64,000 nucleotides of DNA from Acidimicrobiia bacterium (GCA_035512955.1 DATKCZ010000005.1:64879-128878); one strand, 5' to 3'. Numbered from the stretch's first letter, positions 10,299 to 51,349 are shown. The notes: generated from the sequence alone by a model not told the origin. A program made the numbers and translations.

Positions 10299-12365
<2,067 letters not shown>

Positions 12366-16942: not shown

Positions 16943-17283
16943 CCTACGATGTTCCCCTCGCTCCTGGTGAGAAGGCCGACCTCGAGGAGTCGGTCGACGG
17001 GTCCACCGGAGGGTGGCCGATGTGGGAGGTGTTCGTCAGGGCGAGACGGGGGATCTCCCACGTCCACATAGGGAGTCTGCACGCCCCCGATGCCCGCACC
17101 GCCCTCCAGAACGCACGTGACGTCTATACCCGCCGTGGTGAGGGGATCAGCGTGTGGGTGGTGCCCAGCACAGAGATCCACGCATTCGAGCCGGAGGCGG
17201 CCGCAGCGTACGTCGAGGCCAACGAGAAGGTCTATCGCCTGGCCACCACCTACGACATACCCGATGAAGTGGGGCAAATGTGA
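16939..17283 (+). CDS. paaB: 1,2-phenylacetyl-CoA epoxidase subunit B
   Basis: 114 aa. WPMWEVFVR...[11 protein letters not shown] is PaaB-like. There is a 4-bp overlap with paaA. Confidence 0.9.
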
Positions 17284-18026
17284 GCGACCAGATCCTCTCC
17301 GGAGCGCCGCAGGGGACCCCCGTGGTCGACCTGGACCCACGACTCCGCACCCTGCTCTCACACGCCGACGACAACATGGTGCTCGCCCAGCGTCTCGGGG
17401 AGTGGATCTCCAGGGCGCCCGAGCTCGAGATCGACATCGCCCTGGGGAACGTCGCATTGGACCATCTGGGGGTGGCCCGCTCGCTGTACACCCACGCCGG
17501 TGAGCTCGAGGGCGCAGAACGTACCGAGAACGACTTCGCCATGCGACGCACCGAACGTGAGTTCCTCAACCTGCTCCTCGTCGAACAGCCCAACGGCGAC
17601 TTCGCCCAAACCATCGTCCGCCAGGTCTTCTTCGATGTCTACCAGGGCGTCCTCTGGGGTGATCTGGCTGGCTCCGACGACGAGACGCTGGCCGGCATCG
17701 CCGCCAGGGCGGGCAAGGAGACGGCATATCACCACGAGTTCTCCACCAGCTGGCTGATCCGTCTCGGCGACGGGACCGAGGAGTCGCATTTCCGCTCGCA
17801 GCGGGCGGTGGACGCCCTGTGGCGGTTCACCGCCGAGCTCGCCGCGCCATACCCCGACAGCTGGCGGGCCGCGATCGACGATCTGCTCGCCCGGGCCGGC
17901 CTGCTGGCACCCGAGGACCCTTATCAGCGGTCCGGCGGCCGGGAGGGGTATCACACTGAGCATCTCGGCTTCCTCCTCGCCGAGATGCAATGGATGGATC
18001 GGACCTACCCGGGGATGGAGTGGTGA
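17280..18026 (+). CDS. paaC: 1,2-phenylacetyl-CoA epoxidase subunit C
   Basis: 248 aa. LLSHADDNMVLAQRLGEWISRAPELEIDIALGNVALDHLG is PaaC-like. Confidence 0.9.
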   Translation: MSDQILSGAPQGTPVVDLDPRLRTLLSHADDNMVLAQRLGEWISRAPELEIDIALGNVALDHLGVARSLYTHAGELEGAERTENDFAMRRTEREFLNLLLVEQPNGDFAQTIVRQVFFDVYQGVLWGDLAGSDDETLAGIAARAGKETAYHHEFSTSWLIRLGDGTEESHFRSQRAVDALWRFTAELAAPYPDSWRAAIDDLLARAGLLAPEDPYQRSGGREGYHTEHLGFLLAEMQWMDRTYPGMEW

Positions 18027-18475
18027 GGCTCGCCACCGATCTGGCTTCGGTCGTCGCCTCGGTGGTCGACCCCGAGATCCCCGTTCTCACCATCGCGGAC
18101 CTCGGTGTCCTCCGCTCCGTGGCGACCGAAGACGGCCACGTGGTGGTGACCATCACCCCCACCTACTCGGGTTGCCCCGCCATGCGCCAGATCGAGGACG
18201 ACATCGGCTCTGCCCTGCTCAGAGAGGGTGTGGAGTCGTTCGAGGTGAGGGTGTCCCACAACCCGGTGTGGACCACCGATTGGATCAGCGAAGTCGGGAT
18301 TCGCAAGCTGTCCGAGTTCGGGATCGCCCCACCGACGGGGCCAGACGAGGTCCTTTGCCCCCGATGTGAGGCGGACCGGCCGCGGTTGGTTGCCTGGTTC
18401 GGCTCCACGGCCTGCAAGGCGCTGATGGTGTGCTCGTCGTGTGGCGAGCCGTTCGACTACTTCAAGCAGTTCTGA
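17990..18475 (+). CDS. paaD: Phenylacetate-CoA oxygenase subunit PaaD (SUF/MIP18-like)
   Basis: VVDPEIPVLTIADLGVLR, plus the C-terminal zinc-ribbon motifs CPRC...CSSCGEPF. An alternative GTG start at 18023 would overlap the paaC stop (GTGA). Confidence 0.85.
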   Translation: MDGSDLPGDGVVRLATDLASVVASVVDPEIPVLTIADLGVLRSVATEDGHVVVTITPTYSGCPAMRQIEDDIGSALLREGVESFEVRVSHNPVWTTDWISEVGIRKLSEFGIAPPTGPDEVLCPRCEADRPRLVAWFGSTACKALMVCSSCGEPFDYFKQF

Positions 18476-19548
18476 TGAGTGAGCTCGAGTTCCACGAGCT
18501 TCGGGTGACCGAGGTCAGCCGGCTGACCGAGGACTCGGTGGCCGTCACCTTCGACGTGGCTTCTCATCTGCAAACCACCTTCGCCTATCTGCCTGGCCAG
18601 CATGTCACCCTGCGCGCATTCGTCGACGGCGTCGATGTGAGACGCTCCTACTCGATCTGTGCTCCCGCCGGCTCGGGCAAGCTGAGGGTCGGGGTGAAGA
18701 AACTCCAGGGCGGGGTTTTCAGCACCTACGCCACCGAGGAGCTGAGAGCGGGTGACACCCTCGAGGTGATGTCCCCCGTGGGCGAGTTCACCATCGACAT
18801 CGACCCGGGCCGCCCCCGCAAGGCGGTGGCCATCGCCGCCGGTTCGGGGATAACGCCGGTGCTCTCGCTGATCGCCACCTCGCTCGAGAGCGAGCCGGCG
18901 TCGAGCTGGACACTCCTCTACGGGAACCGGACCGCCAACTCCGTGATGTTCCTCGACGAGTTGGAGGGGCTGAAGGATCGCTACCACCCCCGGTTCCAGC
19001 TCTTCCACATCCTCAGCCGGGAAGGCTCCGATGTGCCATTGCTCTCCGGTCGGATAGATGACGAGAAGATCAGGACGGTCCACGACCGGCTGCTGGGCGC
19101 CGGCTCCGTGGACGGTTGGTATCTCTGCGGCCCCTACGACATGGTGATGTCGGCGAGGGCGACCCTGGGAGATCTGGGTGTCCCCGGGGCGTCGATACGC
19201 GACGAGCTCTTCTTCGCCGGTCCGCTCGACGAGTCGGCCCTACCCCCCGAGCCACCACCGGGGGAGGGCAGTGTCGACCTCACCGTGATTCTCGACGGTC
19301 GGGCAGTCGATACTCGCATGAGCCCCGAGACCTCGGTCCTCGACGCCGCCCTGCGGGTCCGTTCGGAGCTGCCCTTCTCCTGCAAGGGCGGCATGTGTGC
19401 CACCTGCAAGGGCCGTATCGAAGAAGGCCAGGTGAGGATGGACAAGAACTATGCATTGGTCGACTCCGAGGTGGAGGCGGGGTTCGTCCTCACCTGCCAG
19501 GCCCACCCGGTGTCCGACAAAGTCGTCGTCCGCTACGACCACCGCTGA
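18475..19548 (+). CDS. paaE: Phenylacetate-CoA oxygenase reductase subunit (FNR-like + 2Fe-2S ferredoxin)
   Basis: The start at MSELEFHEL overlaps the paaD stop (TGATG). RSYS FAD motif, GSGITP NAD motif, and a C-terminal CxxxxCxxC cluster (CKGGMCATCKG). Confidence 0.9.
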   Translation: MSELEFHELRVTEVSRLTEDSVAVTFDVASHLQTTFAYLPGQHVTLRAFVDGVDVRRSYSICAPAGSGKLRVGVKKLQGGVFSTYATEELRAGDTLEVMSPVGEFTIDIDPGRPRKAVAIAAGSGITPVLSLIATSLESEPASSWTLLYGNRTANSVMFLDELEGLKDRYHPRFQLFHILSREGSDVPLLSGRIDDEKIRTVHDRLLGAGSVDGWYLCGPYDMVMSARATLGDLGVPGASIRDELFFAGPLDESALPPEPPPGEGSVDLTVILDGRAVDTRMSPETSVLDAALRVRSELPFSCKGGMCATCKGRIEEGQVRMDKNYALVDSEVEAGFVLTCQAHPVSDKVVVRYDHR

Positions 19549-31722: not shown

Positions 31723-32751
31723 TCATCCACCGTTCTGTGACTCGGCTCCGACCGTCCAGGTCCCGTGGGAGCGGATCAGGGCGTTGATGTCCCCCTCTCC
31801 GAACTTCTCCTTGGCCGCAGCCAACTGGAGATTGACCTCGTGGTCGTACACGGGGCGCTTCACGTCGCGGAAGATCCCGAGTGGCGTCGGCCCGTAAGGG
31901 CCGTGGGAGAGACGACTGATGGCAAATGCGATGGAGGGATCCTCCCGGGTCTCATCGTGGATCAAGATCGCCTTGGGGTCGACCGAGGACGAGTCCACGA
32001 TCTCGGTCTGGCCACCCCGCATCACCACGGCCTTGCCCCCCTCGTCGAAGACGATGGGCTTGCCGTGCTCGAGGTCGATGCGGTTGTGCACCCGCTCCTC
32101 TTTCCCGGTGAGCTGGATGAAGGCCTTGTCGTTGAACACGTTGCAGTTCTGGTAGACCTCGATGAAGGCGGCGCCCTCGTGCTCGTAGGCCTTCTGCAGG
32201 ATCTCCTGGGTGTGGCCGCGATCCATGTCGAGGGTTCTCGCCACGAAGGTCGCCTCCGCGCCCAGGGCCAGCGAGACCGGGTTGAACGGGTAGTCGACCG
32301 AGCCGAACGGTGAGGATTTCGTCGACTTGCCCACCTCTGAGGTGGGGGAGTACTGACCTTTGGTCAGACCGTAGATCTGGTTGTTGAACATGATGATCTT
32401 CAGGTTCACGTTGCGACGCAGCACATGGATCAGATGGTTGCCCCCAATGGAGAGGCCGTCTCCGTCACCGGTGATGACCCAGGTGGAGAGATCGGGACGG
32501 GTGGTGGCGATGCCGGTGGCGATGGCCGGGGCCCGTCCGTGGATCGAGTGCATCCCATAGGTGTTGACGTAGTAGGGGAAGCGGGAGGCGCAACCGATCC
32601 CGGAGACGAACACGAACTCCTCGCGAGGACGGCCCAGACCGGCGAGGAACATCTGCACCGACGCCAGGATGGTGTAGTCACCGCAACCGGGGCACCACCG
32701 GACCTCCTGGTCGGTCTGAAAGTCGGCTCTGGTGTAGGAAGGCGCAGTCAT
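31723..32751 (-). CDS. korB: 2-oxoglutarate:ferredoxin oxidoreductase beta subunit
   Basis: 342 aa. WCPGCGDY, the TPP-binding block GDGD...GGNH, and a 4-bp overlap with korA. Confidence 0.9.
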   Translation of the reverse strand: MTAPSYTRADFQTDQEVRWCPGCGDYTILASVQMFLAGLGRPREEFVFVSGIGCASRFPYYVNTYGMHSIHGRAPAIATGIATTRPDLSTWVITGDGDGLSIGGNHLIHVLRRNVNLKIIMFNNQIYGLTKGQYSPTSEVGKSTKSSPFGSVDYPFNPVSLALGAEATFVARTLDMDRGHTQEILQKAYEHEGAAFIEVYQNCNVFNDKAFIQLTGKEERVHNRIDLEHGKPIVFDEGGKAVVMRGGQTEIVDSSSVDPKAILIHDETREDPSIAFAISRLSHGPYGPTPLGIFRDVKRPVYDHEVNLQLAAAKEKFGEGDINALIRSHGTWTVGAESQNGG

Positions 32752-34619
32752 TCGACCATCTCCAGGATCTTCTCGGTGATCTCGGTGACCTTGAACGGCT
32801 CCCCTGCCACCTTGTTGAGGCCCACCGCGTCGAGCAGGTACTCGGCCCTGATCACCTTGAGCAGTTGACCGGTGTTGAGCTCGGGGATGAGGATCTTCTC
32901 ATATGAGCGGAGGACGTCGCCCAGATTATTGGGAAGGGGGTTCAGATAGCGGAGGTGGGCGGTGGCCACCTCGTGGCCCTCGAGCCTGGCCTGTCTCGCC
33001 GCCGCCCGGATCGAGCCGAACGTCGAGCCCCAGCCCAGGATCAGGATCTTGGCGCCCTGGTCACCGTCGACCTCCACGACGGGGATGTCATTGGCGATAT
33101 TGGCCACCTTCCAGGCACGGGTGTCGGTCATGAGCTGGTGGTTGGCCGGGTCGTATGAGACATTTCCGGTCACCGACTCCTTTTCGAGCCCTCCGACGCG
33201 GTGCTCGAGACCGGGGGTGCCCGGCACCGCCCAAGGGCGGGCGAAGGTGTCGATGTTGCGGATGTAGGGGAGGAAGGTCCCGTCGGGGCCGTTGGGCTTG
33301 GTGGCGAACTCGACCTCGATGTTGGGGATCGCCTCCACGTCGGGGAGCAGCCACGGTTCGGAGCCGTTGGCGATCTGGTTGTCGCTCATCAGTATCACCG
33401 GGGTCATGTAGGTGATGGCGATGCGGGCGGCCTCGATCGCCATGGCGAAGGCGTCGGAGGGTGAGGCGATGGCCAGCACCGGGACGGGTGACTCGCCGTG
33501 TCTTCCGTACAGGGAGAACAGGAGATCGGACTGCTCGGGCTTGGTGGGCAGACCGGTGGAGGGCCCGCCCCGCTGGACGTTGAGCACGATCATGGGCAGC
33601 TCGAGCATGAAGCACAGAGAAATCGTCTCCGACTTGAGGGCGATACCCGGCCCGGACGACCCGGTGACGGCGAGGTTTCCGGCGAAAGCCGCCCCGACCG
33701 CGCTGCCCACTCCGGCGATCTCATCCTCGGCTTGGAACGTGCGGACCTCGAAGTTCTTGTGCCTGGAGAGCTCGTGGAGCACGTCCGACGCCGGGGTGAT
33801 CGGGTAGCTCCCGTAGAACAGGGGCAGACCCGACTTCTGCGAGGCGGTGATCAGCCCCCAGGCGAGCGCAGTGTTCCCGTTCACGTTGGTGTACGTGCCT
33901 TCGGGGAGGGCGGCGGGCTTGACCTCGAAGGTGTTCTTGGTGGCCTCGGTGGCGACACCGAAGGTGTATCCGGCCTGGAAGGCCGTCTTGTTGGCGGCGG
34001 CCACCTCGGGGAGTTTGGCGAACTTCTTCTCCACCCATTCGATGGTCGGCTTGGTGGGGCGATGGAACAGCCAGGCCATGAGACCGAGGGCGAAGAAGTT
34101 CTTGGAGCGCAACACGTTGCGCCCGGTGACCCCGGTGTCCTTGACGGCTTCTTTGGTCAGCTCGTCCATGGGGACCTTGATCACCCGGTATCCCTGGAGA
34201 GTGTCGTCCTCGAGGGGGTTCGACTCGTAGCCGGCCTTGGTGAGGTTGCGCTCGTCGAAGGTGTCGGTGTTGACGATCAGGGTCCCACCCTGGCGAAGGT
34301 CCTTGAGGTTCTTCATCAGCGCCGCGGGATTCATGGCGACCAGGCAGTCGGGTGCGTCCCCGGCGGTGAGGATGTCGAAGTCGGCGATCTGCACCTGGAA
34401 GCTGGAGACACCGGGCAGGGTGCCGGCGGGAGCCCGAATCTCGGCGGGGAAGCTGGGAAGGGTGGCCAGGTCGTTCCCGAACAGAGCCGAGGCGTCGGTG
34501 AACCGGCTGCCGGCCAGTTGCATGCCGTCACCGGAGTCGCCGGCGAAGCGGATTACCAGTTTGTCGAGCTCCTCGGTCGGAGTCGTCGAGGGATCTGTGG
34601 TGGCGATGTCATCGGCCAC
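32748..34619 (-). CDS. korA: 2-oxoglutarate:ferredoxin oxidoreductase alpha subunit
   Basis: 623 aa. Fused gamma/alpha-type architecture (IRFAGDSGDGMQLAG...YPITPASD). Confidence 0.9.
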   Translation of the reverse strand: MADDIATTDPSTTPTEELDKLVIRFAGDSGDGMQLAGSRFTDASALFGNDLATLPSFPAEIRAPAGTLPGVSSFQVQIADFDILTAGDAPDCLVAMNPAALMKNLKDLRQGGTLIVNTDTFDERNLTKAGYESNPLEDDTLQGYRVIKVPMDELTKEAVKDTGVTGRNVLRSKNFFALGLMAWLFHRPTKPTIEWVEKKFAKLPEVAAANKTAFQAGYTFGVATEATKNTFEVKPAALPEGTYTNVNGNTALAWGLITASQKSGLPLFYGSYPITPASDVLHELSRHKNFEVRTFQAEDEIAGVGSAVGAAFAGNLAVTGSSGPGIALKSETISLCFMLELPMIVLNVQRGGPSTGLPTKPEQSDLLFSLYGRHGESPVPVLAIASPSDAFAMAIEAARIAITYMTPVILMSDNQIANGSEPWLLPDVEAIPNIEVEFATKPNGPDGTFLPYIRNIDTFARPWAVPGTPGLEHRVGGLEKESVTGNVSYDPANHQLMTDTRAWKVANIANDIPVVEVDGDQGAKILILGWGSTFGSIRAAARQARLEGHEVATAHLRYLNPLPNNLGDVLRSYEKILIPELNTGQLLKVIRAEYLLDAVGLNKVAGEPFKVTEITEKILEMVE

Positions 34620-37561: not shown

Positions 37562-38491
37562 CTACGCGTCGGCGTCAGGGTGGTGTGCCAGTGTTGGGTC
37601 GGGAGGCTCGACACGTCCTCGCTCAGACAGGTAGGCATGCCATATCAGCCGGGCCGCGGCCGCTCGCACCGGGCGCCACGGCTCGCCGATTATCTCGAGC
37701 TGCGCCTCGTTGGGCGTCTCGGTCATCCCGAGGGCGGCCCCCGCCCCGACCTGCAGCGCCCGGTCGCCGACCGGCCACATGTCGGGGCGTCGCAGAGCCG
37801 AGAGCAGGTAGGCGTCGGCGGTCCACGGACCGATCCCCTTGATCGAGATCAAGGTGTCCCTGGCCCTCTCCATCGGGTCGGTCTCGAGTGATTCGAGGTC
37901 TATCTCACCCGTCGCGATCCGACCAGCCAGCTCGAGGAGGTAAACGGTCTTCTGCCTGGTGACACCGATGGCGCGCAGTCTGTCGGGCCCGGCGGCGATG
38001 AGCCATCGGGGTGACACCTCCCCGAGGAGACCGACGAGACGCCGATACATGGCGGCGCCGGACTCAAGGGAGACCTGCTGCTCCAGGATCAACAGGACCA
38101 GAGTCCGAAACCCGGGCTGCCGGTGCCAGAAGTCGGGGATCCCCCATCGGTCGACCAGACGTGCGATGTGCTCGTCCTCGGCGGCGAGGAGCCCGGTGGC
38201 CGCGGCAAAGGTCTCCGCGTCGAGATGGCTGACCACCGGCATCATCTGCTCCGTCGGGATGCGGCCCAGGGTGCGGGAGTCGGTGTCACCCACCTCGGGG
38301 TTGTCCGACACCACCCAGCCGGTCTCGTCCCCCAGACGCTTGATCAGCCAGAACCCGGGGCGGGCGGGGTGCTCGAACACGACGAGGTTTCCGGGGATGG
38401 GGCGGCGGGTATTGACCGCGACGACCTCCTGGCCGGGCTGGAGTGTGGGTGTCATCGAATGTCCAGCCACCCGAAAGCGCTTCATCTTCAT
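37562..38491 (-). CDS. Fusion: S26-type (SodX-like NiSOD maturation) peptidase + HhH-GPD DNA-3-methyladenine glycosylase II (AlkA-like)
   Basis: The start was chosen at MKMKRFRVAGHSMTPTL, which contains the S26 Ser motif GHSMxPTL; the Lys motif is LIKRL. The C-terminal ~200 aa carry LILEQQVS...IKGIGPWTADAYLL...WPVGD. The gene is divergent from sodN. Confidence 0.75.
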   Translation of the reverse strand: MKMKRFRVAGHSMTPTLQPGQEVVAVNTRRPIPGNLVVFEHPARPGFWLIKRLGDETGWVVSDNPEVGDTDSRTLGRIPTEQMMPVVSHLDAETFAAATGLLAAEDEHIARLVDRWGIPDFWHRQPGFRTLVLLILEQQVSLESGAAMYRRLVGLLGEVSPRWLIAAGPDRLRAIGVTRQKTVYLLELAGRIATGEIDLESLETDPMERARDTLISIKGIGPWTADAYLLSALRRPDMWPVGDRALQVGAGAALGMTETPNEAQLEIIGEPWRPVRAAAARLIWHAYLSERGRVEPPDPTLAHHPDADA

Positions 38492-38541
38492 GGGTGGCCC
38501 GGGAGTATGGTCGGACGCGAAGAGACCAAGAGAGGAGTCAT

Positions 38542-38949
38542 ATGCGACAGATAACCGAGGCACACGCCCATTGCGACCTCTACTGCGGCGTCTACGACCC
38601 CGCCCAGGCCAAGATCGAGGCGCTGTCGGTGCTGAAGATCGCCGAGAAGTACCAGGGTTCGGATGACGAGGTGTTCCGTGCCCGTTGCGTTCTCCTCAAG
38701 GAGGAGCGGGCCGAGTTGGTCAAGCACCACCTGATGGTGTTGTGGGCCGACTTCTTCAGCGCCGATCACCGCAAAGAGTTCTCCAACCTCGACGACCTGT
38801 TCTGGCGGGCCATCCACCAGGCCGGTGAGGCCAAGAAGTCGGCCGACCCTGCCGAGGGCCAGAAGCTGATCGATCTCATCGACGAGATCGCCGACATTTT
38901 CTGGCAGACCGCCAAGGCCAAGGAGATGGGGGTCTACCCACCCTCGTAG
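38542..38949 (+). CDS. sodN: Nickel superoxide dismutase precursor
   Basis: 135 aa. The RBS GAGGAG precedes the start. A 9-aa propeptide MRQITEAHA is followed by the Ni-hook HCDLYCGVYDPAQAKIEA. Full-length NiSOD similarity. Confidence 0.9.
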   Translation: MRQITEAHAHCDLYCGVYDPAQAKIEALSVLKIAEKYQGSDDEVFRARCVLLKEERAELVKHHLMVLWADFFSADHRKEFSNLDDLFWRAIHQAGEAKKSADPAEGQKLIDLIDEIADIFWQTAKAKEMGVYPPS

Positions 38950-42738: not shown

Positions 42739-43410
42739 TCACCCCCGGCGTCTCTGTCGCCAGCTCCGGTAGATCTTCCTGGTCAGGGAGACCGCACCGG
42801 TCCCGGAGGGCCTCATCTGGTCGAGCCGCGGGTCGACATCAGGTGCCGCCCGTACCTGTTCGAGCTCGTCGCGCAGCTCACCGAGGCGCTCTTTGAGAAA
42901 GTGGGCCTCGGTCTCGGCCTTGGCGGCGCGTTCTCTCGCCTCGGCCAGGGCTTGACCGGCCTCGTGGAGGTTTCCCAACTGGTTGAGCATCCGGTTCCAG
43001 GCGTCCAGTGGGACCAGCATCGAGCCCTCCGGGATGCGTGGCTCGTCTTCGGCGGTCAGCTCGACCTCCCCGGCCGGTTGGGGAAGTTCTCCCCGCGGCC
43101 CCTTGTCGGGGGTGAGCGAGGCCATCTCCCTGCCGATCTCGTCGGTCCACCGCTTGATGCCGCTCATGGAGACGATTCGCAGGTAGCCATCGGAGTTCTG
43201 CTCGAGGAAGCTCGGGATGTTCTTGTGCCGCGCCCACTTGCGGATCGTCGAGGTGGGGACCCCGGTGATCTCGCTCGCCTCTCTCAGGGTGAGCCAGTCC
43301 CCGGCATCGTGGGCCACTCTGGGGCGGGGCCTGGCGTCGCCCGACGAGTGGTCTCTCGAAGAGCGGAGGACCTCGGTCTCCCACAGAAAGGCTGGATCTG
43401 GGCTCGCCAC
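42739..43410 (-). CDS. HTH (MerR/excisionase-type) DNA-binding protein with C-terminal coiled coil
   Basis: 223 aa, GTG start. HTH region WLTLREASEITGVPTSTIRKWARHKNIP and a coiled-coil segment LAEARERAAKAETEAHFLKERLGELRDELEQV. Divergent from the first BMC-locus gene, 47 bp away. Confidence 0.5.
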   Translation of the reverse strand: MASPDPAFLWETEVLRSSRDHSSGDARPRPRVAHDAGDWLTLREASEITGVPTSTIRKWARHKNIPSFLEQNSDGYLRIVSMSGIKRWTDEIGREMASLTPDKGPRGELPQPAGEVELTAEDEPRIPEGSMLVPLDAWNRMLNQLGNLHEAGQALAEARERAAKAETEAHFLKERLGELRDELEQVRAAPDVDPRLDQMRPSGTGAVSLTRKIYRSWRQRRRG

Positions 43411-43457
43411 GCTCGCATCATAAGGGTGTCGCCGGTGGGGGCGTCGGCCTTCCTAGG

Positions 43458-44081
43458 ATGCGTCCTTCGATGTCACCCCCGCAACCGCGAGACCTCCCGT
43501 CCGAGGAGGAAGTCCGCGCCCTGGTCGAGCGTATCCTGGACGATGTCGTCGACTCCGGTGGACATGACGGAGGCGAGACCGCCGGCTACGACCCCGCCGT
43601 GTCCGGTGAGGCGGAGCCGGGAAGCGAGGGGATCGCAATCGGCGCCGACCACGGCGGCTTCCCGCTCAAGGAGCGGATCGCCTTCAAGTTGAGGGAGGCA
43701 GGGTGGGAGGTCTTCGACTGTGGCACCGACTCACACGAGGCCGTCGACTACCCCGATTTCGCCCACGCCGTGGCCCGCAAAGTGGCCTCCGGAGAGTGTC
43801 GATGGGGGATCGTCATCGACGGTGCCGGGATCGGCTCGGCCATGGTTGCCAACAAGGTGGCCGGGGTCAGGGCCGCCTCGTGCTACGACCTGTCCTCGGC
43901 CCGCAACAGCCGGGAGCACAACCACGCCAACGTCTTGACCCTCGGCGCCGGTCTCATCGGCGAAGGGCTAGCGTGGCAGATCGTCGAAGAGTGGCTGTCC
44001 ACCGAGTGGGCAGGGGGCCGCCACGCCCTTCGCGTTGCCAAGATCGACGCGCTCGACCAGCAATACTCGAGGTCCGAATGA
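43458..44081 (+). CDS. rpiB: RpiB/LacAB-family sugar-phosphate isomerase with ~55-aa N-terminal extension (BMC-associated)
   Basis: The core begins at [16 protein letters not shown] and contains [16 protein letters not shown] and NVLTLG. The N-terminal extension holds the amphipathic helix [16 protein letters not shown], followed by a G/P/E-rich linker. Confidence 0.85.
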
Positions 44082-44091
44082 AGACGAGCAC

Positions 44092-44925
44092 ATGAACAGG
44101 GAGGCTCTCGTCGAGGCGATCACACGTGAGGTGCTCGCCTCCCTGTCAAGCCGGTTCGACATGGCAGAGACCGGGGAGACGGTGCGTGAGGTGGTGGCCA
44201 ACGGCGCCGACCGGGTCGCCTTCCATGGCGAGGCTGCCGATGTGCCCATCGACCTCGCCCAATACATCGATCACACCCTGCTCAATGCCGACGCCACCGC
44301 CGAGGACATCGATCGGCTCTGCTCCGAGGCGGACCAGTACGGGTTCGCCTCGGTGTGCATCAACCCCACTTGGGTGAAACGCGCCGCCAACGACTTGAGG
44401 GGCACCTCCGTCCCGGTCTGCACCGTGATCGGCTTCCCCCTCGGAGCCACCACCACCGAGGTCAAGGCGATGGAGGCTCGCAAGGCGTTGCGCGACGGTG
44501 CCCGTGAGATCGACATGGTGATCAATGTCGGGGCGCTCAAGTCGGGAGACCACGACGTGGTCTACAACGACATCGCCAGGGTGGTCGATGCCTCCCACGA
44601 GGTCGGTGCGGTCTGCAAGGTGATCCTGGAGACGGCACTGCTCACAGACGAGGAGAAGGTGATCGCCTCGGCCCTGGCCAAGCGGGCCAAGGCGGATTTC
44701 GTCAAGACATCGACAGGATTCGGCCCCGGAGGCGCCACCGTCTATGACGTGGCCCTGATGCGTGAGACGGTGGGCCCGGAGATGGGCGTCAAGGCATCGG
44801 GCGGGGTGCGGACGGCCCACGACGCCGAGGACATGATCGCAGCAGGCGCCACCAGGATCGGCGCCTCGGCCGGTGTTCAGATCGTCAGCGGAACCGACGG
44901 AGGAGACAGTGACGAAAGGTATTGA
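44092..44925 (+). CDS. deoC: Deoxyribose-phosphate aldolase with N-terminal extension (BMC-associated)
   Basis: The start was chosen at [18 protein letters not shown]. The DeoC core includes IDHTLL, a Schiff-base Lys in FVKTSTGF, and VKASGGVR. Confidence 0.9.
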
Positions 44926-45544
44926 GCTCAGGTCCTACGCCTTCCTGGACAGTCTGCAACCCCAATATGCAGCTTTCCTGGGAACGGTCGCACAGGGATT
45001 CCTCCCTCTGGCCGGTGACGCCTCGCTCTGGGTGGAGGTCGCCCCGGGGATCGAGATCAACCGGCTCTCCGACGTCGCTCTCAAGGCGACCACGGTCAAG
45101 CCCGGTCTGCAGATAATCGAGCGGTACTACGGGGTGCTCGAGGTGCACTCACCCGATCAGGCCGAGACGCGGGCGGCGGGAGAGGCCATCCTCGAGGCGA
45201 TCGAGCACACCGAGGACGAGCGCATGAAGCCGCGCATTCTCAGCTCCCAGATAATCCGCCGCATCGACGACCACCATGCCCAGCTCATCAACCGGACCAG
45301 GCACGGCCAGATGATCATCCCCGGACAGACCCTCTACGTGCTCGAGTGCGAACCGGCGGCGTATGCCTCGCTGGCGGCCAACGAGGCAGAGAAGGCCGCC
45401 GAGATCAATGTGCTCGAGGTGCGCAGCTTCGGCTCGATGGGTCGGATCTATCTCGGCGGCGAAGAGCGCGATATCGATGTCGGGTGGCAGGCGGCGGTGG
45501 CCGCGCTCGAGGGCTTGACCGGCCGGGATTCCGGTCAAACGTAG
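44909..45544 (+). CDS. Tandem BMC-domain shell protein (BMC-T)
   Basis: GTG start, preceded by the SD GGAGGAG. Two BMC-like repeats: [37 protein letters not shown] and [43 protein letters not shown]. Confidence 0.7.
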
Positions 45545-45584
45545 GTAACTGTTCCCATGGAGAACGAACGAAAGGAGGAGCTTC

Positions 45585-45887
45585 ATGGCTGAAGCTCTTG
45601 GAATGATCGAAGCCCGCAGCTTCCCGGCGATGGTCGAGGCTGCGGACGCCATGGTCAAGGCGGCCAAGGTGGAGCTGGTGAGCATGGAGAAGACGGGTGG
45701 CGGGTACGTGACCGCCGTGGTCCGCGGTGACGTGGCCGCGGTCAAGGCCGCAGTCGACGCCGGTGTCCGCGGCGCCGAGAAGGTCGGCGAGGTCACGGCG
45801 ACACATGTCATCGCACGTCCACATGTCAATGTGGATCTCGCCCTGCCCCTCGGCCGTCAGGAACAGGCTCAGGAAGACCTCGGTTAG
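45585..45887 (+). CDS. BMC-H hexameric shell protein (PduA/EutM/CcmK-like, PF00936)
   Basis: 100 aa, preceded by an [68 protein letters not shown] is a canonical BMC domain. Confidence 0.95.
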
Positions 45888-45901
45888 GTGCGCCCCCACC
45901 A

Positions 45902-46210
45902 ATGCAGTTAGGCAGGGTCTCAGGGACGCTCGTCGCCAGTCGCAAAGAAGCCCTGATGGAGGGGATGAAGTTCCTGGTGGTGAAACAGATCGACGAGGCC
46001 AATCAGGAGACCGGCTCGTACGTGGTGGCCGTCGACGCCGTTGGGGCGGGTGTGGGTGAGGTCGTCCTCTACGCGTCGGGCAGCTCGGCGCGCCAGACCG
46101 AGATGACCAGGGACCGTCCCTGTGATGCGGTCATCATGGCGATCGTGGACTCCTGGGACGTCGGCGGCGAGGTGAGGTACCACAAGGGCGAGGAGGAGCG
46201 CTCTGGATAG
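45902..46210 (+). CDS. BMC-P pentameric vertex protein (EutN/CcmL/PduN-like, PF03319), copy 1
   Basis: 102 aa. [29 protein letters not shown]...[22 protein letters not shown]. Confidence 0.9.
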
Positions 46211-46253
46211 GTCACGGCTGAGCGAGTCGGAGATCCGCGCCATCATCGATCGG

Positions 46254-47672
46254 GTGAAGGGGCGGGTGGCCGCCGCCGAGTTCGCGGCGCGCGCCGGTCC
46301 CACCCTGCGAGCCGGAGACGAGCTCGCGGTCTCCGAGATCGAGCTGGGAGACGGCATCCATCTCACTATCGAGGAGGCGGTCAAGGCCGCCCGCCGGGCC
46401 TTCATGGACTATCGGGAGATGGGCTTGGAGGCCCGCAAGACGATCGTCGGCAGCATGCGGGCCGCCATGCTGCGCGAGGGAGAGCGATTGGCGTACATGG
46501 CCGCCGAGGAGACCGGGATCGGCCGGGCCGAGGACAAGGTGGTGAAGAACCGTCTGGTCACGACGAAGACCCCAGGCCCTGAAGACCTCGAGCCCCATGT
46601 GGTCACCGGGGACTCCGGGATGATGGTCACCGAGTACGCCCCATACGGGGTCATCGCTTCGATCACCCCCACCACCAACCCGACTTCGACCATCATCAAC
46701 AACTCGATCTCGATCGTCTCGGCGGGCAACGCCGCGATCTTCAATGTCCATCCCAACGCCGCGATGGTCTCGGTGGAGAACATCAAGCTCCTCAACCGGG
46801 CGATCGTCTCCGCCGGGGGGCCACAGGACCTGATCACCGCCACACCCCAACCGACACTGGAGACGGCGCGGGAGGTGATGCACCATCCCGACGTGAGGGT
46901 CCTGCTGGTCACCGGGGGCCCGGGAGTGGTCAAGGAGGCGTTGAAGACCAGCAAGAAGGCGATCACCGCCGGGCCGGGCAACCCACCAGCGGTCGTCGAC
47001 CAAACCGCGGATGTCGAAGCGGCGGGCCGTGACATATTCCTCGGTGCTTCCTTCGACAACAACGTGATCTGCACCGACGAGAAGACCACGATCGTCGTCG
47101 ACACGGTGGCCGATCGGCTGGTGCAATCGATGATGTCCAACGGCTCCTACCGATTGAAGGAACACGAGCTGAAGCGTCTCGAGCGGGTGATCTTCCGGGA
47201 GATGGGGCCGCCCAACAAGCCGGGGATGATCAACCCGGAGTGGATCGGGAAGAGCGCCCAGAGGATCCTGTCCGAGATCGGGGTCACCGTCGACCACGAC
47301 GTGAGGCTGGTGGTGGCCGAGGTACCCCGTGAGCACAACCTGGTGTGGACCGAGCAGATGATGCCGGTCATGCCGGTGGTCAGGGTGCAGAACGTCGACG
47401 ACGCCATCGACCTGGCGGTCAAGTCGGAGCACGGGTTCCGTCACACGGCTTCGATCCACAGCACCAATGTCGACACCATCACCCGGATGGCCCGGGCGAT
47501 GAACTGCAGCATCTTCGTCGCCAACGGTCCCAACTACAGCGGTCTCGGCGAGGGCGGCGAGGGGTTCACCTCGTTCTCGATCGCCAGCCCCACGGGTGAG
47601 GGCATGACCCGCCCCCGCCACTTCTCCCGGGTGCGGCGGATCAGCGTGGTGGGGGCTCTTCGCATTGTCTGA
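46254..47672 (+). CDS. CoA-acylating aldehyde dehydrogenase (PduP/EutE-like)
   Basis: 472 aa from the GTG start. Catalytic Cys context FDNNVICTDEKT and cofactor block VTGGPGVV. The frame is open upstream to 46176 and encodes an amphipathic helix there, so the true start may be upstream and non-canonical. Confidence 0.9.
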   Translation: MKGRVAAAEFAARAGPTLRAGDELAVSEIELGDGIHLTIEEAVKAARRAFMDYREMGLEARKTIVGSMRAAMLREGERLAYMAAEETGIGRAEDKVVKNRLVTTKTPGPEDLEPHVVTGDSGMMVTEYAPYGVIASITPTTNPTSTIINNSISIVSAGNAAIFNVHPNAAMVSVENIKLLNRAIVSAGGPQDLITATPQPTLETAREVMHHPDVRVLLVTGGPGVVKEALKTSKKAITAGPGNPPAVVDQTADVEAAGRDIFLGASFDNNVICTDEKTTIVVDTVADRLVQSMMSNGSYRLKEHELKRLERVIFREMGPPNKPGMINPEWIGKSAQRILSEIGVTVDHDVRLVVAEVPREHNLVWTEQMMPVMPVVRVQNVDDAIDLAVKSEHGFRHTASIHSTNVDTITRMARAMNCSIFVANGPNYSGLGEGGEGFTSFSIASPTGEGMTRPRHFSRVRRISVVGALRIV

Positions 47673-48255
47673 CCCCGCCATCGCCCTACTCGAGTTCGAC
47701 TCGATCAGCGCCGGGATAGTGGCGGGTGATGCCATGGTCAAGACCTCCCCGATCGGCTCGATCTATGCGGGGACGGTTCATCCGGGCAACTACCTGGTGC
47801 TGGTGACGGGTGACACCGCCAGCGTGGAGATCGCTCTTGCTACCGGCATCGACATCGGAGGCAGCCGGCTGACCGACTCGGTTTTCCTCCCCGACATACA
47901 CCCGGACGTGTCAGCCGCCATCGTCGGTGGCGCCCGGGCGGCGACGTTGCGGGAGGAGGCACTCGGGGTCGTGGAGACCACCACGGTGGCTGCGGTGATC
48001 GACGCGGCCGATGCCGGGGTCAAAGCCGCCGACGTGGAGGTCTCCTCGGTGCGGCTGGCCGATGGTTTGGGGGGGAAGGGATATGTGCTCTTCTCGGGCG
48101 TGGTTGCCGAGGTGGAGGCTGCGGTGGAGGCGGCAGTGGAGCGGGTGGCTCCTCACCGGACGCTAGTGAGGTCAGACGTCATCGCCCAGCTCCACGACGA
48201 GATGGCTGACAACCTCGGCGCCGAGCTTCGCTTCATAAAGCGCGTGGAGAGCTGA
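47665..48255 (+). CDS. Tandem BMC-domain shell protein (PduT-like BMC-T)
   Basis: 196 aa. The TTG start overlaps the end of the AldDH gene. Two BMC domains: AIALLEFDSISAGIVAGDAMVKTSPI...HPGNYLVLVTGD and ALGVVETTTVAAVIDAADAGVKAADVEV...GGKGYVLFSG. The protein contains no cysteine. Confidence 0.85.
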   Translation: MSDPAIALLEFDSISAGIVAGDAMVKTSPIGSIYAGTVHPGNYLVLVTGDTASVEIALATGIDIGGSRLTDSVFLPDIHPDVSAAIVGGARAATLREEALGVVETTTVAAVIDAADAGVKAADVEVSSVRLADGLGGKGYVLFSGVVAEVEAAVEAAVERVAPHRTLVRSDVIAQLHDEMADNLGAELRFIKRVES

Positions 48256-48534
48256 ATGCAGCTGGCACGGGTCCTGGGGAGCGTGGTCGCCACCGAGAAG
48301 GCCGAGGGCCTCGAGGGGGTCCGCTTCTTGGTGATCCAGCCCCTGGACAAGAGACAGGAACCGGTGGGAGGGACCGTGGTGGCTGCCGACGCGGTGCAGA
48401 TGGCCGGACCGGGCGAGCTGGTCTATTTCGTCAGCTCGCGAGAGGCCGCCGAGGCCCTGCCGGTGCGCTTTGTGCCCGTTGACCACGCCGTCGTCGGGAT
48501 CGTCGACGAGGTGACGCTCGGAGTCGAGACGTGA
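48256..48534 (+). CDS. BMC-P vertex protein, copy 2
   Basis: 92 aa. MQLARVLGSVVATEKAEGLEGVRFLVIQPLD...AADAVQMAGPGELVYFVSSREA. Confidence 0.85.
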   Translation: MQLARVLGSVVATEKAEGLEGVRFLVIQPLDKRQEPVGGTVVAADAVQMAGPGELVYFVSSREAAEALPVRFVPVDHAVVGIVDEVTLGVET

Positions 48535-48818
48535 AGGTGGGCAATGTGGTCGGGACGGTGGTGTCGACGATCAACATCCCCCTTCTCGACGAGCATCGGC
48601 TCCTCCTGTGCGATGTGCAGGACGTCGCAGGTGAGCCGGATGGGTACACCATCTGCATCGACGTGGTCGACGCCGGGATGGGCGAGACCGTCCTGATCCT
48701 CGACGAGGGGAACTCGGCCCGTCAGATCCTCGGTCTCGAGACCGGTGCAATTCGCGCTGTCATAGTCGGCGTGGTCGACGAGCTCTACGTCGACGGCGAG
48801 TTGCGCGAAGTCATCTGA
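48531..48818 (+). CDS. BMC-P vertex protein, copy 3
   Basis: 95 aa. The GTG start overlaps the stop of copy 2 by 4 bp. VGNVVGTVVSTINIPLLDEHRLLLCDV...IDVVDAGMGETVLILDEGNSARQ. Confidence 0.8.
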   Translation: MKVGNVVGTVVSTINIPLLDEHRLLLCDVQDVAGEPDGYTICIDVVDAGMGETVLILDEGNSARQILGLETGAIRAVIVGVVDELYVDGELREVI

Positions 48819-49735
48819 GGGCTTGGCACCGGTGACGACGATCCGGGTCGAGCCGGGTCGGAGCTCTTCAGTGCGCCGAACCACACTCCGGTCATCACCA
48901 CGAGCGCGCCGGTGATGCCCCGGCCCGTCAAGGGCTCATCGAGCAGCCAGGCCTCGACCAGCATGGTGACCACGGGGAACAGAACAAAGGTGTACGAGGT
49001 CACCGCCACCGACCAGCGACGCACCACCAGCAGCATCAGCACGAACATCCCCACAGACCCGAGGAGCACCAGATACAGCACCGACAGCACCACCTCGGGC
49101 TGCCGGGGCACCGCCCACCGCTCACCGGCCAGCCCTGACAGCAAGAGCAAGAGCGGCGCCCCCAATGACATGCCCACCGCGTTGGTCATCACCGGGTGGT
49201 TGCCGGAGACACGCTTGCCGAAGATGACGCTCTGGCCGATGGTGAGGGAGGCGGCCAGGACGGCGAGCAGGCCACCGAGGGGCAGGGCCAGCCCATTGGG
49301 GCCGACCGTCATCCAGACGATCCCTCCCAATGCCAGCAGCGCACCAATGACGGTTCGCCTATTGAGACGTTCCAGACCCTGCGCCCATGCCAGGAGAGGG
49401 GCCACCAAGGGGACTATGGCGAGCAACACCGCGGTCATCCCGGCACTGACCCGAACCAGGGCCCAGTACATGAGGGCGTAGGAGAGGGTGACGGTGAACA
49501 GACCGTATAGACCCGTGAGCACCAGTTGTCGCCCCCTCGGCCGTTCGAGACCCAAGACCAGGGCGATCAGCACGAACACGATCGCAGCCAGCGAGAAGCG
49601 CAGCCCGGCACCCCAGAAGGGCGGGAGCTCGCCATTGCTGAACCTGACCGCAACGAAGTTACCGCCCCCGAGGAGGACGGCGCCGGCGAAGGCACCGAGG
49701 GTGAATGCTCCGGGTGGTCGCAGGGGACCGGTCAA
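48785..49735 (-). CDS. EamA/DMT family transporter
   Basis: 316 aa. About 10 TM helices. It is convergent with the third BMC-P gene and overlaps its 3' end by 34 bp. Confidence 0.8.
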   Translation of the reverse strand: MTGPLRPPGAFTLGAFAGAVLLGGGNFVAVRFSNGELPPFWGAGLRFSLAAIVFVLIALVLGLERPRGRQLVLTGLYGLFTVTLSYALMYWALVRVSAGMTAVLLAIVPLVAPLLAWAQGLERLNRRTVIGALLALGGIVWMTVGPNGLALPLGGLLAVLAASLTIGQSVIFGKRVSGNHPVMTNAVGMSLGAPLLLLLSGLAGERWAVPRQPEVVLSVLYLVLLGSVGMFVLMLLVVRRWSVAVTSYTFVLFPVVTMLVEAWLLDEPLTGRGITGALVVMTGVWFGALKSSDPARPGSSSPVPSPQMTSRNSPST

Positions 49736-49819: not shown

Positions 49820-51349
49820 TCACCCGACGAGTCGGTGCTCCATGGCATAGACCGATGCGCCCGCCCGGGTGGAGACCCCGATCTTGGAGTAGATGTTCTC
49901 GACATGACGGCCCACCGTCTTGGGCGATATGTAGAGCCGCTCGGCGATCCGGCGGTTGGTGTGCTCTCTCGCGATGAGTCGGAGCACCTCGACCTCGCGA
50001 TCGGTGAGCCCATCGGGATTGCGGGGGGCGGGTCGCTCCAGCTCACCTCCTGCCGCGGCGACCACCCAAGCCACCGCATCCGAGTCGAGACGGCCCGCGT
50101 CACGGTCGTCCCTCATCGCCTCGACTGCCCCATCGAGAGACACCGCGCCCCGATGTGGCCGGTCAGAGGTCAGCGCCACCAGGGTGTCGGCTGCGGCCAG
50201 GATGTTGTCTCCCACCGACAGGTGATCAGCGCCGACCTGACGGTGGTATCCCGAGCCGTCGAGTCGCTCGTGGTGTCTCGAGGCGAGCTCGCCCAGCGGC
50301 TGTAACGCCGGGCAGCGGGAAAGGACTCGATCCGTCAGATAGGGATGAAGCATCACCTTCTCCCACTCGTCCACCGACAGCGGGCCCGGCTTGTCCCAGA
50401 TCCCGTTCTCCACACCGACACGCCCCAGATCGTGGACGAGCCCCGCCCGGTGCAGGCGATTGGCCCCCTCCAGCCCCAGCCCCGCCTGGTGCGCTGCCGT
50501 CTTGGCCAGGTCGGCCACCCGACGGGAATGGCCCCGGGTCCAGGGTGACTTGAGATCGACGAAGTCGGCCAGCACGGTCAGGGCATGATCGAGATCATCC
50601 ACCTGGGATACCGGGTCCGGCTCGCTCTCCAAGAGCTCCTCCCAATCTGCCTCCCCGCTCCAGTGGTGGCGTATGCCGTCGAAGGCGTCCACCACCCTCG
50701 GGTCGTACGCCTTTCCCCGGCGTTGGTTGAGCAGAACCATCGGGTCCCGGTTCCCGTGCACCGCGAGATCGATGTCTCGGGCCACCGATGAGATCCTGAT
50801 CTCGAGGGGGATGGCCTCCCCCGCCGTGCCGTTGGGGAGCCCCTTGCCGTCCCAACGCTCATAGGCATGCTGGAGGGCGCCGATGACCGGCTCTCCCAGG
50901 CCTAGACGCGAGGCCAGCATCGCGGCCACCTCGCAATGAGCGCTCAGGGTGCGGGTGGCCCCGTCCCGGTCTGAGAGGGCTCCAAGGAGGAGCGCGGCCT
51001 TTCTCAGTGGCGGCTTCCCGGGCCCCACCGCTCTCACCGTCGCCTTGAGCGACTCGACGGGATCCCCGTTGAGCACGTGCGCCATCGCGAAATTGAACGA
51101 CAGCTCGTCCCCGCCCACGACCCGGGCCAACTCTGACACCTCCCCGGTGCAACCGAGGAAGCGGAGCAGTGACACCTGGTGGACCGAACGAACCTGCTCG
51201 GGCCCGAGGCCCATCTCTCCGGCCACCCGGACCGCGAGCAGACAGGTGCGCAGACCATGCCCCAGCGGGGTGCCCGTTGCCAGATCGGTGGCCAGGGAGA
51301 GCGACGCCAGGAGCTCGGCGAGCCGAAGCCGACCGGTGAACAGGGCCAT
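49820..51349 (-). CDS. Tandem HD/HD-GYP-domain protein with C-terminal LuxR-type HTH
   Basis: 509 aa. The first HD-like module is degenerate (HAYERWDGKGLPNG). The second is HD-GYP-like (HDLGRVG...HHERLDGSGYHR). C-terminal HTH: LTDREVEVLRLIAREHTNRRIAERLYISPKTVGRHVENIYSKIGV. Confidence 0.75.
   Translation of the reverse strand: MALFTGRLRLAELLASLSLATDLATGTPLGHGLRTCLLAVRVAGEMGLGPEQVRSVHQVSLLRFLGCTGEVSELARVVGGDELSFNFAMAHVLNGDPVESLKATVRAVGPGKPPLRKAALLLGALSDRDGATRTLSAHCEVAAMLASRLGLGEPVIGALQHAYERWDGKGLPNGTAGEAIPLEIRISSVARDIDLAVHGNRDPMVLLNQRRGKAYDPRVVDAFDGIRHHWSGEADWEELLESEPDPVSQVDDLDHALTVLADFVDLKSPWTRGHSRRVADLAKTAAHQAGLGLEGANRLHRAGLVHDLGRVGVENGIWDKPGPLSVDEWEKVMLHPYLTDRVLSRCPALQPLGELASRHHERLDGSGYHRQVGADHLSVGDNILAAADTLVALTSDRPHRGAVSLDGAVEAMRDDRDAGRLDSDAVAWVVAAAGGELERPAPRNPDGLTDREVEVLRLIAREHTNRRIAERLYISPKTVGRHVENIYSKIGVSTRAGASVYAMEHRLVG

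Follow-up and report, generated by a model that had tools for sequence, protein, structure and literature searches.

Sugar-phosphate-utilization (SPU) organelles belong to the most widespread bacterial microcompartments (BMCs), and to our knowledge descriptions of a native SPU shell, a growth phenotype or a regulator are lacking. The subject of the current study is a nine-gene BMC cassette at positions 43458 to 48818 of a stretch of 64,000 nucleotides from an Acidimicrobiia bacterium (Actinomycetota; GCA_035512955.1, DATKCZ010000005.1:64879-128878), which is referred to as the window in the following. The comparative catalogue of BMC loci comprises more than 280 SPU loci from 26 phyla, with 31 loci of the subtype SPU3 (PMC8217296). 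SPU3 is defined by an aldehyde dehydrogenase (AldDH) and enzymes of the families PF01791 and PF02502, one BMC-H, a triplet of BMC-P genes, two of them adjacent, a CcmP-like double-stacking tandem-BMC trimer (BMC-Tdp) and a single-layer tandem-BMC trimer (BMC-Ts) without PduS or pore cysteine (PMC8217296). Its AldDH and its deoxyribose-phosphate aldolase (DERA) carry N-terminal encapsulation peptides (EPs), and the host phyla given for this subtype include Actinobacteria (Sutter et al. 2021, Nat Commun, Supplementary Data 2; PMC8217296). The tree file of the catalogue contains an actinobacterial SPU3 CcmP-like Tdp of 210 amino acids and of the 'bland' colour type (PMC8217296). No Acidimicrobiia name was found in the accessible part of the Sutter 2021 supplements, where only the unclassified-Actinobacteria entry RBG_16_68_12 ties SPU3 to the phylum, and a literature search for Acidimicrobiia and microcompartments returned nothing specific. 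Our comparative analysis of gene content leads us to interpret the window cassette, with good confidence, as an SPU3-subtype metabolosome operon with a proposed function in deoxyribose-phosphate catabolism. It is a new example of an already catalogued and partly characterized type and does not represent a new kind of system.

Enzyme biochemistry is available for a single SPU locus, the SPU6 of Chloroflexi bacterium GWB2_54_36 (PMC11585597). Its purified DERA is active on deoxyribose 5-phosphate (Dwyer, Sutter, Kerfeld 2024; PMC11585597), and its RpiB-like protein (RPI), which forms a 1:1 complex with DERA, exhibits negligible activity on ribose 5-phosphate (PMC11585597), because the catalytic cysteine is replaced by aspartate. 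This exchange of Cys66 for Asp is common to all SPU RPIs (PMC11585597). A bioRxiv preprint from 2025 furthermore reports the self-assembly of an SPU-type shell of Asgard (Hodarchaeales) archaea (PMC12747264). The initial annotation of the window had assigned the cassette to the SPU class, which is borne out by the gene content and refined here to the subtype SPU3. It had also regarded the class as known only from genome surveys, a statement that is outdated in view of the SPU6 biochemistry of 2024 and the shell preprint of 2025.

The cassette has a length of 5.4 kb and consists of nine co-directional open reading frames (ORFs) on the plus strand in the order RPI-DERA-Tdp-H-P1-AldDH-Ts-P2-P3. 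All of them were recovered where the initial annotation had placed them, its gene identities agree with the Pfam and NCBIfam profile results, and the tight packing that it described is reflected by intergenic gaps of -17 to +40 nt after correction of the start codons. Genes of the families PF00936 and PF03319 are clustered with enzymes, which is the hallmark of a BMC locus. The DERA within the shell cluster, the acylating AldDH, the RPI with its Cys-to-Asp exchange and the BMC-P triplet represent the features of SPU. The CcmP-like Tdp, the Ts without pore cysteine or PduS, the N-terminal EP of AldDH and the set of three enzymes are those of SPU3. Accounting for the whole stretch from 43458 to 48818, the enzymes are restricted to the AldDH, PF01791 and PF02502 types and match the SPU3 set, and the shell set is complete with BMC-H, the CcmP-like Tdp, the cysteine-less Ts and three BMC-P.

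The conservation of this organization was investigated by scanning species-representative genomes with the AldDH of the window, which retrieved at least 564 related places, the best 80 of which were kept (AldDH 71-91% identical to the window). Nearly all of these 80 loci are located in metagenome-assembled genomes (MAGs) of Acidimicrobiia or other Actinomycetota. A tblastn comparison of all window proteins with the best 80 of the at least 564 places documented an identical gene order in every sufficiently long locus, with amino-acid identities ranging from 48-85% for Ts up to 77-100% for BMC-H. The cassette is far beyond chance, with an order that is kept in every related locus of sufficient length. 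It is present in well over 100 species-level genomes, and protein searches yielded thousands of close metagenome homologues. A second genome scan started from a locus labelled as Ilumatobacter. Of each scan 80 loci were kept, with an overlap between the two lists; all of them stem from MAGs, and no cultured carrier was found among them. An exact-sequence look-up of the AldDH of the window retrieved no record.

A decaying or non-assembling relic, or a cassette that is not a single transcription unit, would be difficult to reconcile with nine intact ORFs whose third-position GC content (GC3) is of the coding type (0.82-0.89 for the cassette ORFs scored by the composition filter), with amino-acid identities to the related loci of 48-100%, depending on the gene, with catalytic and pore residues that do not vary, and with a fixed order of genes that overlap or abut and have thousands of close homologues in metagenomes. 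Two observations would fit such a relic. The AldDH has no canonical start codon in front of its targeting peptide (see below), and generic scans for expression signals are uninformative either way: in a sigma-70 scan of 42.6-49.9 kb no promoter was matched, and terminator-like sites occurred at chance level. We regard this explanation as extremely improbable.

Cassettes that are 74-84% identical by AldDH were also found in MAGs labelled as Acidobacteriota, Gemmatimonadales, Kiloniellales or Verrucomicrobiota (loci L014-L016, L021, L027, L047, L054, L060 and L077). The labels of, for example, L015, L016, L021 and L027 look like the result of mis-binning or misclassification and not of horizontal transfer, because the MetG/EamA flank of Acidimicrobiia is also present there.

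The signature enzyme of the cassette, of a type that is unique to SPU, is the DERA (44092..44925, plus strand), which scores 293 bits with the TIGR00126 deoC equivalog (cut-off 117). The start codon ATG 44092 gives a protein of 277 amino acids, which is also the length of homologues annotated as deoxyribose-phosphate aldolase in the database. In an alignment of 28 homologues with 86-96% identity Asp141, Lys205 in the motif VKTSTGF and Lys234 in the motif GVKASGG are invariant. Both catalytic motifs quoted in the initial annotation, VKTSTGF for DERA and NNVICTDEK for AldDH, proved to be correct in the DERA alignment and in the comparison of AldDH with the structure 5JFL, respectively. DERAs in the PDB (E 1e-81) cover only residues 53 to 270 and thereby reveal a strongly conserved N-terminal extension of 52 residues. 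An AlphaFold2 (AF2) model based on the shallow alignment of 28 sequences provides a confident TIM-barrel core. In Gaiellaceae-type relatives such as L074 the extension carries an insert with four cysteines (DVCADCHGSCAAHCSDKV), possibly a metal or Fe-S site, which is absent from the window.

The RPI gene is the first of the cassette (43470..44081, plus strand). Its product matches PF02502 with 179 bits over a core of residues 59-196 and TIGR01120 with 153 bits (cut-off 138.65). Sixty-seven orthologues share the same layout of a conserved N-terminal helix, an unconserved linker of about 30 amino acids and the RpiB core, an arrangement that is the classical one of an EP as judged from the sequences. 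An alternative start codon, ATG 43458, lies within a candidate promoter motif, and its counterpart in the related locus L002 runs into an in-frame stop; this motif therefore does not serve as a start codon, and RPI probably starts at ATG 43470. The alignment with E. coli RpiB (1NN4, segment GILICGTGVGI) documents the replacement of the catalytic Cys66 by Asp and of the neighboring Thr by Ala, and this Asp is conserved in at least 95% of the 67 orthologues. The designation as RpiB-like isomerase in the initial annotation hence holds for the family, but the protein is probably no ribose-5-phosphate isomerase.

Additional evidence for the divergence of RPI is provided by 15 related loci that harbor a second RpiB gene, which lies downstream of the cassette on the minus strand at a distance of a few kb (L038, 18111-18551; L040, 15551-16003; L064, 16841-17281; and 12 further loci). 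The encoded proteins are 40-48% identical to the BMC copy, and each is probably the housekeeping isomerase, because they retain the catalytic cysteine (VVCGSGAG) and have no N-terminal extension. The presence of a separate, cysteine-bearing RpiB in these loci speaks in favor of the BMC copy being a paralogue that has diverged and probably has a structural role. No second RpiB gene was found in the window. Taken together, a role as packaging partner of DERA that binds sugar phosphates is more likely for RPI than one as ribose-5-phosphate isomerase.

The third enzyme is a CoA-acylating AldDH of the EutE/PduP type (46203..47672, plus strand), which matches NF011927 with 606 bits (cut-off 403). 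The top PDB match is the BMC AldDH 5JFL (433 bits), and the cysteine of the motif NNVIC(TDEK) is aligned to the one of the NNLPC motif. The C-terminus ends with the family model, so there is no C-terminal extension. A mechanical ORF call places the start at GTG 46254, but the reading frame is open from 46176, and an EP (LSESEIRAIIDRV) is encoded upstream of the first ATG, GTG or TTG of this ORF (46176-46254). The peptide has the consensus M-L-S-D/E-x-E-I/V-Q/R-x-I-I-E/D-R-V and is conserved at the amino-acid level in more than 70 loci. In 64 of the 80 loci it is directly preceded by ATG, GTG or TTG, but this is the case in none of the 16 members of the clade that the window forms with its 15 closest relatives. 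The conserved EP (LS(D/E)xE(I/V)xxII(E/D)RV) accordingly needs a non-canonical start in the window. The counterpart of GTG 46254 is not a start codon in eight of the 16 clade members (GTC in seven), and a CTG is located 17 codons upstream of the GTG position in all 15 members with an alignment over this region, including the window. This CTG 46203 overlaps the stop codon of BMC-P1 (CTGGATAG) and is preceded by the sequence GGAGGAG; an alternative CTG is present at 46218. The comparison across the clade indicates that AldDH probably uses CTG 46203. Its overlap with the BMC-P stop could set the stoichiometry of cargo and vertex proteins by translational coupling. Mechanical ORF calls would truncate the targeting peptide of AldDH, and constructs cloned on their basis would lose it.

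Among the shell proteins the BMC-Tdp (44909..45544, plus strand), a CcmP-like double-stacking gated tandem-BMC trimer, required most attention. The initial annotation had proposed to verify all six shell genes with PF00936 and PF03319. Five of them match, but Tdp reaches only 22.2 bits with PF00936 and stays below the gathering score of 24.5, which touches the refuting condition named in that annotation (no significant hits). It is nevertheless identified as a CcmP-like Tdp by other evidence, so that all six shell genes are confirmed. It scores 343 bits with the NCBIfam model for CcmP, NF053796 (cut-off 340), is 65% identical without any gap over 204 amino acids to the crystallized CcmP 4HT5 (E 5e-86), and matches the BMC-T3 and BMC-T2 of Haliangium ochraceum (HO; 5V76/5V74) with E-values of about 1e-71. 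The Glu-Arg pair of the pore (IIERYYG) is retained. The most likely start codon is GTG 44909, which follows a Shine-Dalgarno sequence (GGAGGAG), gives an overlap of 17 nt with the DERA gene and results in a protein of 211 amino acids, compared to 208-211 in the homologues. The latter number in the thousands and are mostly annotated as hypothetical protein; they have a precomputed match to PF27545 that was not reported by our local copy of Pfam. Screens that are based on Pfam only would therefore under-call this shell gene.

BMC-H (45585..45887, plus strand; PF00936, 99 bits) represents the main hexameric shell tile and is 80% identical to the BMC-H of H. ochraceum (5DJB). The pentameric vertex protein BMC-P1 (45902..46210, plus strand; PF03319, 102 bits) has its top PDB match with the BMC-P of H. 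ochraceum (5V74_A1, E 1e-31). It is set apart from the adjacent pair of BMC-P2 (48256..48534, plus strand; PF03319, 87 bits) and BMC-P3 (48531..48818, plus strand; PF03319, 66 bits), which overlap by four nucleotides (GTGA). Pairwise identities within the triplet are 32-41% (P2 to P1, 41%; P3 to P1, 37%; P2 to P3, 32%), and the position of P3 is conserved in all complete loci. BMC-Ts (47665..48255, plus strand) contains two PF00936 domains (114 bits), and its top PDB match is PduT (3PAC, E 1.7e-33). The label PduT-like in the initial annotation is appropriate for the fold, but the Fe-S cysteine is gone: the PduT motif TICPGK reads TVHPGN, with a histidine (residue 39) at the position of the [4Fe-4S] cysteine, and the whole protein is free of cysteine. 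The histidine is found at this position in 76 of 79 Ts orthologues, and 53 of the 79 have no cysteine at all. The three histidines at the trimer axis could serve metal binding or pore gating.

The comparison with the described systems places the window closest to SPU3, with which it shares the enzyme set, the shell set, EPs on AldDH and DERA, and hosts among the Actinobacteria. One difference concerns the fusion of RPI and DERA, which was reported for 12 catalogued SPU3 loci in 2021 and for 20 in a re-count of 2024; the window encodes the two proteins by separate genes. The SPU6 locus resembles the window in its compact set of RPI, DERA and AldDH, the extended DERA, the EP and the Cys-to-Asp exchange of RPI, the three BMC-P, and the lack of PduS and phosphotransacylase (PTAC). 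The subtype SPU6 was nevertheless rejected, since it is characterized by a C-terminal EP on AldDH, which no other SPU subtype has, a Tdp of the EUT3-related 'blue' clade and hosts exclusively from Chloroflexi. It also has an AldDH of a 'blue' clade, no consistent CcmP-like Tdp and a GntR/UTRA regulator, whereas the window has an N-terminal EP on AldDH, a CcmP-like Tdp in combination with Ts, and a divergent MerR/HTH_17-like candidate regulator. SPU2 was rejected as well; it has an additional BMC-P of the green clade, a Ts mostly with pore cysteine, and hosts from Bacteroidetes, Spirochaetes and candidate phyla.

Beyond these subtypes, the shell of H. ochraceum (PDB 5V74 etc.) is similar with respect to the closely related BMC-H, the CcmP-like Tdp, Ts and three BMC-P, including the BMC-P that is closest to P1, but its main locus is devoid of DERA and RPI and encodes two Tdp paralogues instead of one. 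The Tdp of the window keeps the gating pair of the beta-carboxysome CcmP (4HT5, 5LSR); in contrast to the beta-carboxysome, the system of the window is catabolic, and RuBisCO, CcmM/N and carbonic anhydrase are absent from the locus. PDU and EUT systems share with the window the logic of an aldehyde-making signature enzyme within the shell, an acylating AldDH (PduP/EutE) and cargo that is targeted by EPs, but the Tdp trimer is absent from PDU1 and EUT1. Unlike in PDU and EUT, the core of the window is 'incomplete', because PTAC (PduL/Pta) and alcohol dehydrogenase are missing from the operon. No PduS-like protein, PTAC (PF06130, Pta) or alcohol dehydrogenase was found among the approximately 50 ORFs of the window that were scanned, a set that does not include some small ORFs, and the locus hence differs from a metabolosome with a complete core. 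The SPU-type loci of Asgard archaea share the core of DERA and AldDH and a shell of H, Ts and multiple P proteins with the window. They are distinguished by a DERA fused to a flavoprotein domain, a DNA-binding disordered tail of P2 and an acquisition from Myxococcota, none of which applies to the window.

The mechanism that we propose starts from the three cargo proteins RPI, DERA and AldDH, each of which has a conserved N-terminal amphipathic extension of the EP kind in its sequence. These extensions and the DERA-RPI complex, with RPI and its two exchanges (Cys to Asp, Thr to Ala) as probable packaging partner of DERA, would nucleate the core around which the shell closes. 2-Deoxyribose 5-phosphate (dR5P) from the breakdown of deoxynucleosides or DNA would enter through the pores of BMC-H or Tdp and be split by DERA into glyceraldehyde 3-phosphate, which would leave for glycolysis, and acetaldehyde. 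The latter would be retained and converted by AldDH with NAD+ and CoA to acetyl-CoA, a chemistry that had already been implied by the initial annotation and that agrees with the profile results and the literature. Since phosphotransacylase, alcohol dehydrogenase and PduS are all missing from the operon, the shell must let NAD(H), CoA and acetyl-CoA pass, for which the large gated pore of Tdp is the most plausible route, as proposed for SPU types without PTAC. The DERA reaction is reversible and no dedicated supply genes are located near the operon, so the same set of proteins might in principle operate in a condensing or detoxifying direction, trapping cytosolic acetaldehyde and either oxidizing it or condensing it with glyceraldehyde 3-phosphate by reverse DERA. 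However, the combination of an aldehyde-producing signature enzyme with an acylating AldDH is conserved across all SPU subtypes, and neither energetics nor genomic data point to a sink for deoxyribose phosphate, which makes this direction very unlikely.

Several observations weigh against the assignment to dR5P catabolism or against parts of the proposed mechanism. The genes deoA/B/D/K are neither present among the scanned ORFs of the window nor recurrent next to the cassette, and no deo, pta, ack or adh gene is found among the recurrent flanking genes of the 80 loci; without linked deoxynucleoside or deoxyribose genes the substrate follows from the DERA assignment alone. The DERA and RPI data originate from an SPU6 locus of Chloroflexi with an AldDH and a Tdp of different clades, and the mechanism proposed for SPU3 and for the lineage studied here is a prediction. 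SPU DERAs were published with an N-terminal extension of a long helix and two strands that is absent from non-BMC DERAs; the AF2 model of the window DERA shows helices at residues 3-21 and 24-36 and no beta strands, with a predicted local distance difference test (pLDDT) value below 50 for the extension and low confidence for the N-terminal 65 residues. The AldDH start proposed for the clade of the window is non-canonical, and the cofactor traffic through Tdp is a hypothesis only. Finally, RPI retains the phosphate-binding Arg residues and His99 and could still act enzymatically on a different sugar phosphate.

The last point and the lack of linked deo genes would be in accordance with the same organelle acting on a substrate other than dR5P, with the Asp-variant RpiB-like protein isomerizing some other, possibly rare, sugar phosphate and acting in series with the aldolase. 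RPI is kept in nearly all SPU subtypes, occurs as a fusion with DERA in part of the SPU3 loci and enters into the 1:1 complex mentioned above (PMC11585597). It furthermore retains the Asp-His pair of RpiB, and the RpiB of M. tuberculosis uses a carboxylate base. Nevertheless, we consider this alternative unlikely in view of the match of DERA to the deoC equivalog (293 bits), its three invariant catalytic residues, and the activity of the SPU6 orthologue on dR5P with an RPI that is negligibly active on ribose 5-phosphate (PMC11585597). Moreover, a 2-deoxy aldose cannot undergo an aldose-ketose isomerization at C2, thus precluding a simple series of RPI and DERA. Even within the preferred assignment to SPU3 the organelle of Acidimicrobiia might not be devoted to the simple disposal of deoxyribose phosphate. 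The universal presence of the Asp/Ala-variant RpiB partner, the conserved histidine of the Ts pore and the absence of cofactor recycling in a largely aerobic lineage leave some room, which we rate as rather small, for an undescribed encapsulated sugar-phosphate chemistry or mode of gating.

Soils and sediments are rich in Acidimicrobiia, a poorly cultured class in which the minimal SPU3 cassette of nine genes is pervasive and highly conserved. Its compact size and the proximity of its shell proteins to the solved HO and CcmP structures make it a convenient candidate for heterologous reconstitution, for which the corrected gene starts matter, because they provide all three enzymes with their EPs. 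The additions of the current study to the knowledge of SPU3 are modest and comprise the strict conservation across Acidimicrobiia, the corrected gene starts and the probably CTG-initiated AldDH peptide as well as a conserved promoter motif, a lineage-specific candidate regulator and the conserved pore histidine of Ts.

The promoter motif was found by comparing the upstream regions across loci. A -10-like hexamer TAGGAT (43454..43459, plus strand), which is embedded in the conserved sequence CCTAGGATG, ends 10 nt before ATG 43470 and represents the candidate promoter of the operon. Of the 66 loci with upstream sequence, 50 have a motif of this CTAGGAT family in front of RPI, compared to a background of 0.017 per 260 nt, and most of the remaining loci exhibit a TAnnnT variant at the same place. 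The short distance indicates that the RPI transcript is probably leaderless or nearly so. On the opposite strand a second -10-like hexamer, TATGAT (43417..43422, minus strand), is positioned 6 nt upstream of the start codon GTG 43410 of a divergent gene, and motifs of the type CATCATAAG are present in 36 of the 66 loci, which suggests a leaderless transcript for this gene as well. The two hexamers stand back to back at a distance of about 31 bp (43417-43459), each 6-10 nt from a start codon, and this arrangement suggests overlapping divergent promoters.

The divergent gene (42739..43410, minus strand) encodes a protein of 223 amino acids with a weakly HTH_17/MerR-like N-terminus and a C-terminal half that resembles a coiled coil. 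Its matches to HTH_17 (25 bits), MerR (20.7 bits) and MerR_1 (19.9 bits) are all below the Pfam gathering scores. Most Acidimicrobiia loci that extend into this region have an orthologue next to RPI in divergent orientation, and the cluster of these related flanking genes spans 32 loci. Judged only from its position, the protein is a candidate regulator of the operon, and it would control transcription from the conserved TAGGAT element. In the more distant Gaiellaceae-type relatives the divergent MerR-like gene is replaced by a co-directional GntR/UTRA regulator, as in the experimentally studied SPU6 locus; this replacement and the four-cysteine insert of DERA were noted in L074 (6280-7089 and 7400-8566).

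The flanking genes had been described as ordinary in the initial annotation, in agreement with our profile scans of the flanking ORFs, which identified housekeeping genes. The 3' end of BMC-P3 overlaps the one of a convergent EamA gene by 34 bp (48785-48818), thus leaving no room for an intrinsic terminator. This EamA gene (48785-49735, minus strand) and the following HD_5/LuxR regulator gene (49820-51349) stand beside the cassette in no related locus. A flank with MetG, EamA and a lipoprotein is also present in the closest related loci among the best 80. Apart from the regulator, the recurrent flanking genes of the 80 loci encode MetG, EamA, lipoprotein, Ni-superoxide dismutase (NiSOD), 6-phosphogluconolactonase, a hydrolase, Ppk, MurA and GlnA, all of which are merely syntenic housekeeping genes. 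Two further recurrent flank 'clusters' were rejected as antisense artefacts.

More distant parts of the window contain several genes that deserve mention. An ORF of 688 codons (10299-12365, plus strand) joins the domains of chorismate mutase (CM_2), prephenate dehydratase (PDT), ACT and DAHP_synth_1, an unusual fusion in which the first step and late steps in the synthesis of aromatic amino acids are combined. It adjoins a prephenate dehydrogenase gene (9072-10100). A phenylacetate-CoA oxygenase cluster with PaaA/PaaC-type subunits and a PaaE-like reductase is located 25 kb upstream of the cassette (16016-19548), followed by a pair of genes for a 2-oxoacid:ferredoxin oxidoreductase (31723-34619) and by a NiSOD gene with a putative maturation peptidase (37562-38949). 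The phenylacetate, oxidoreductase and NiSOD genes fit an aerobic heterotroph.

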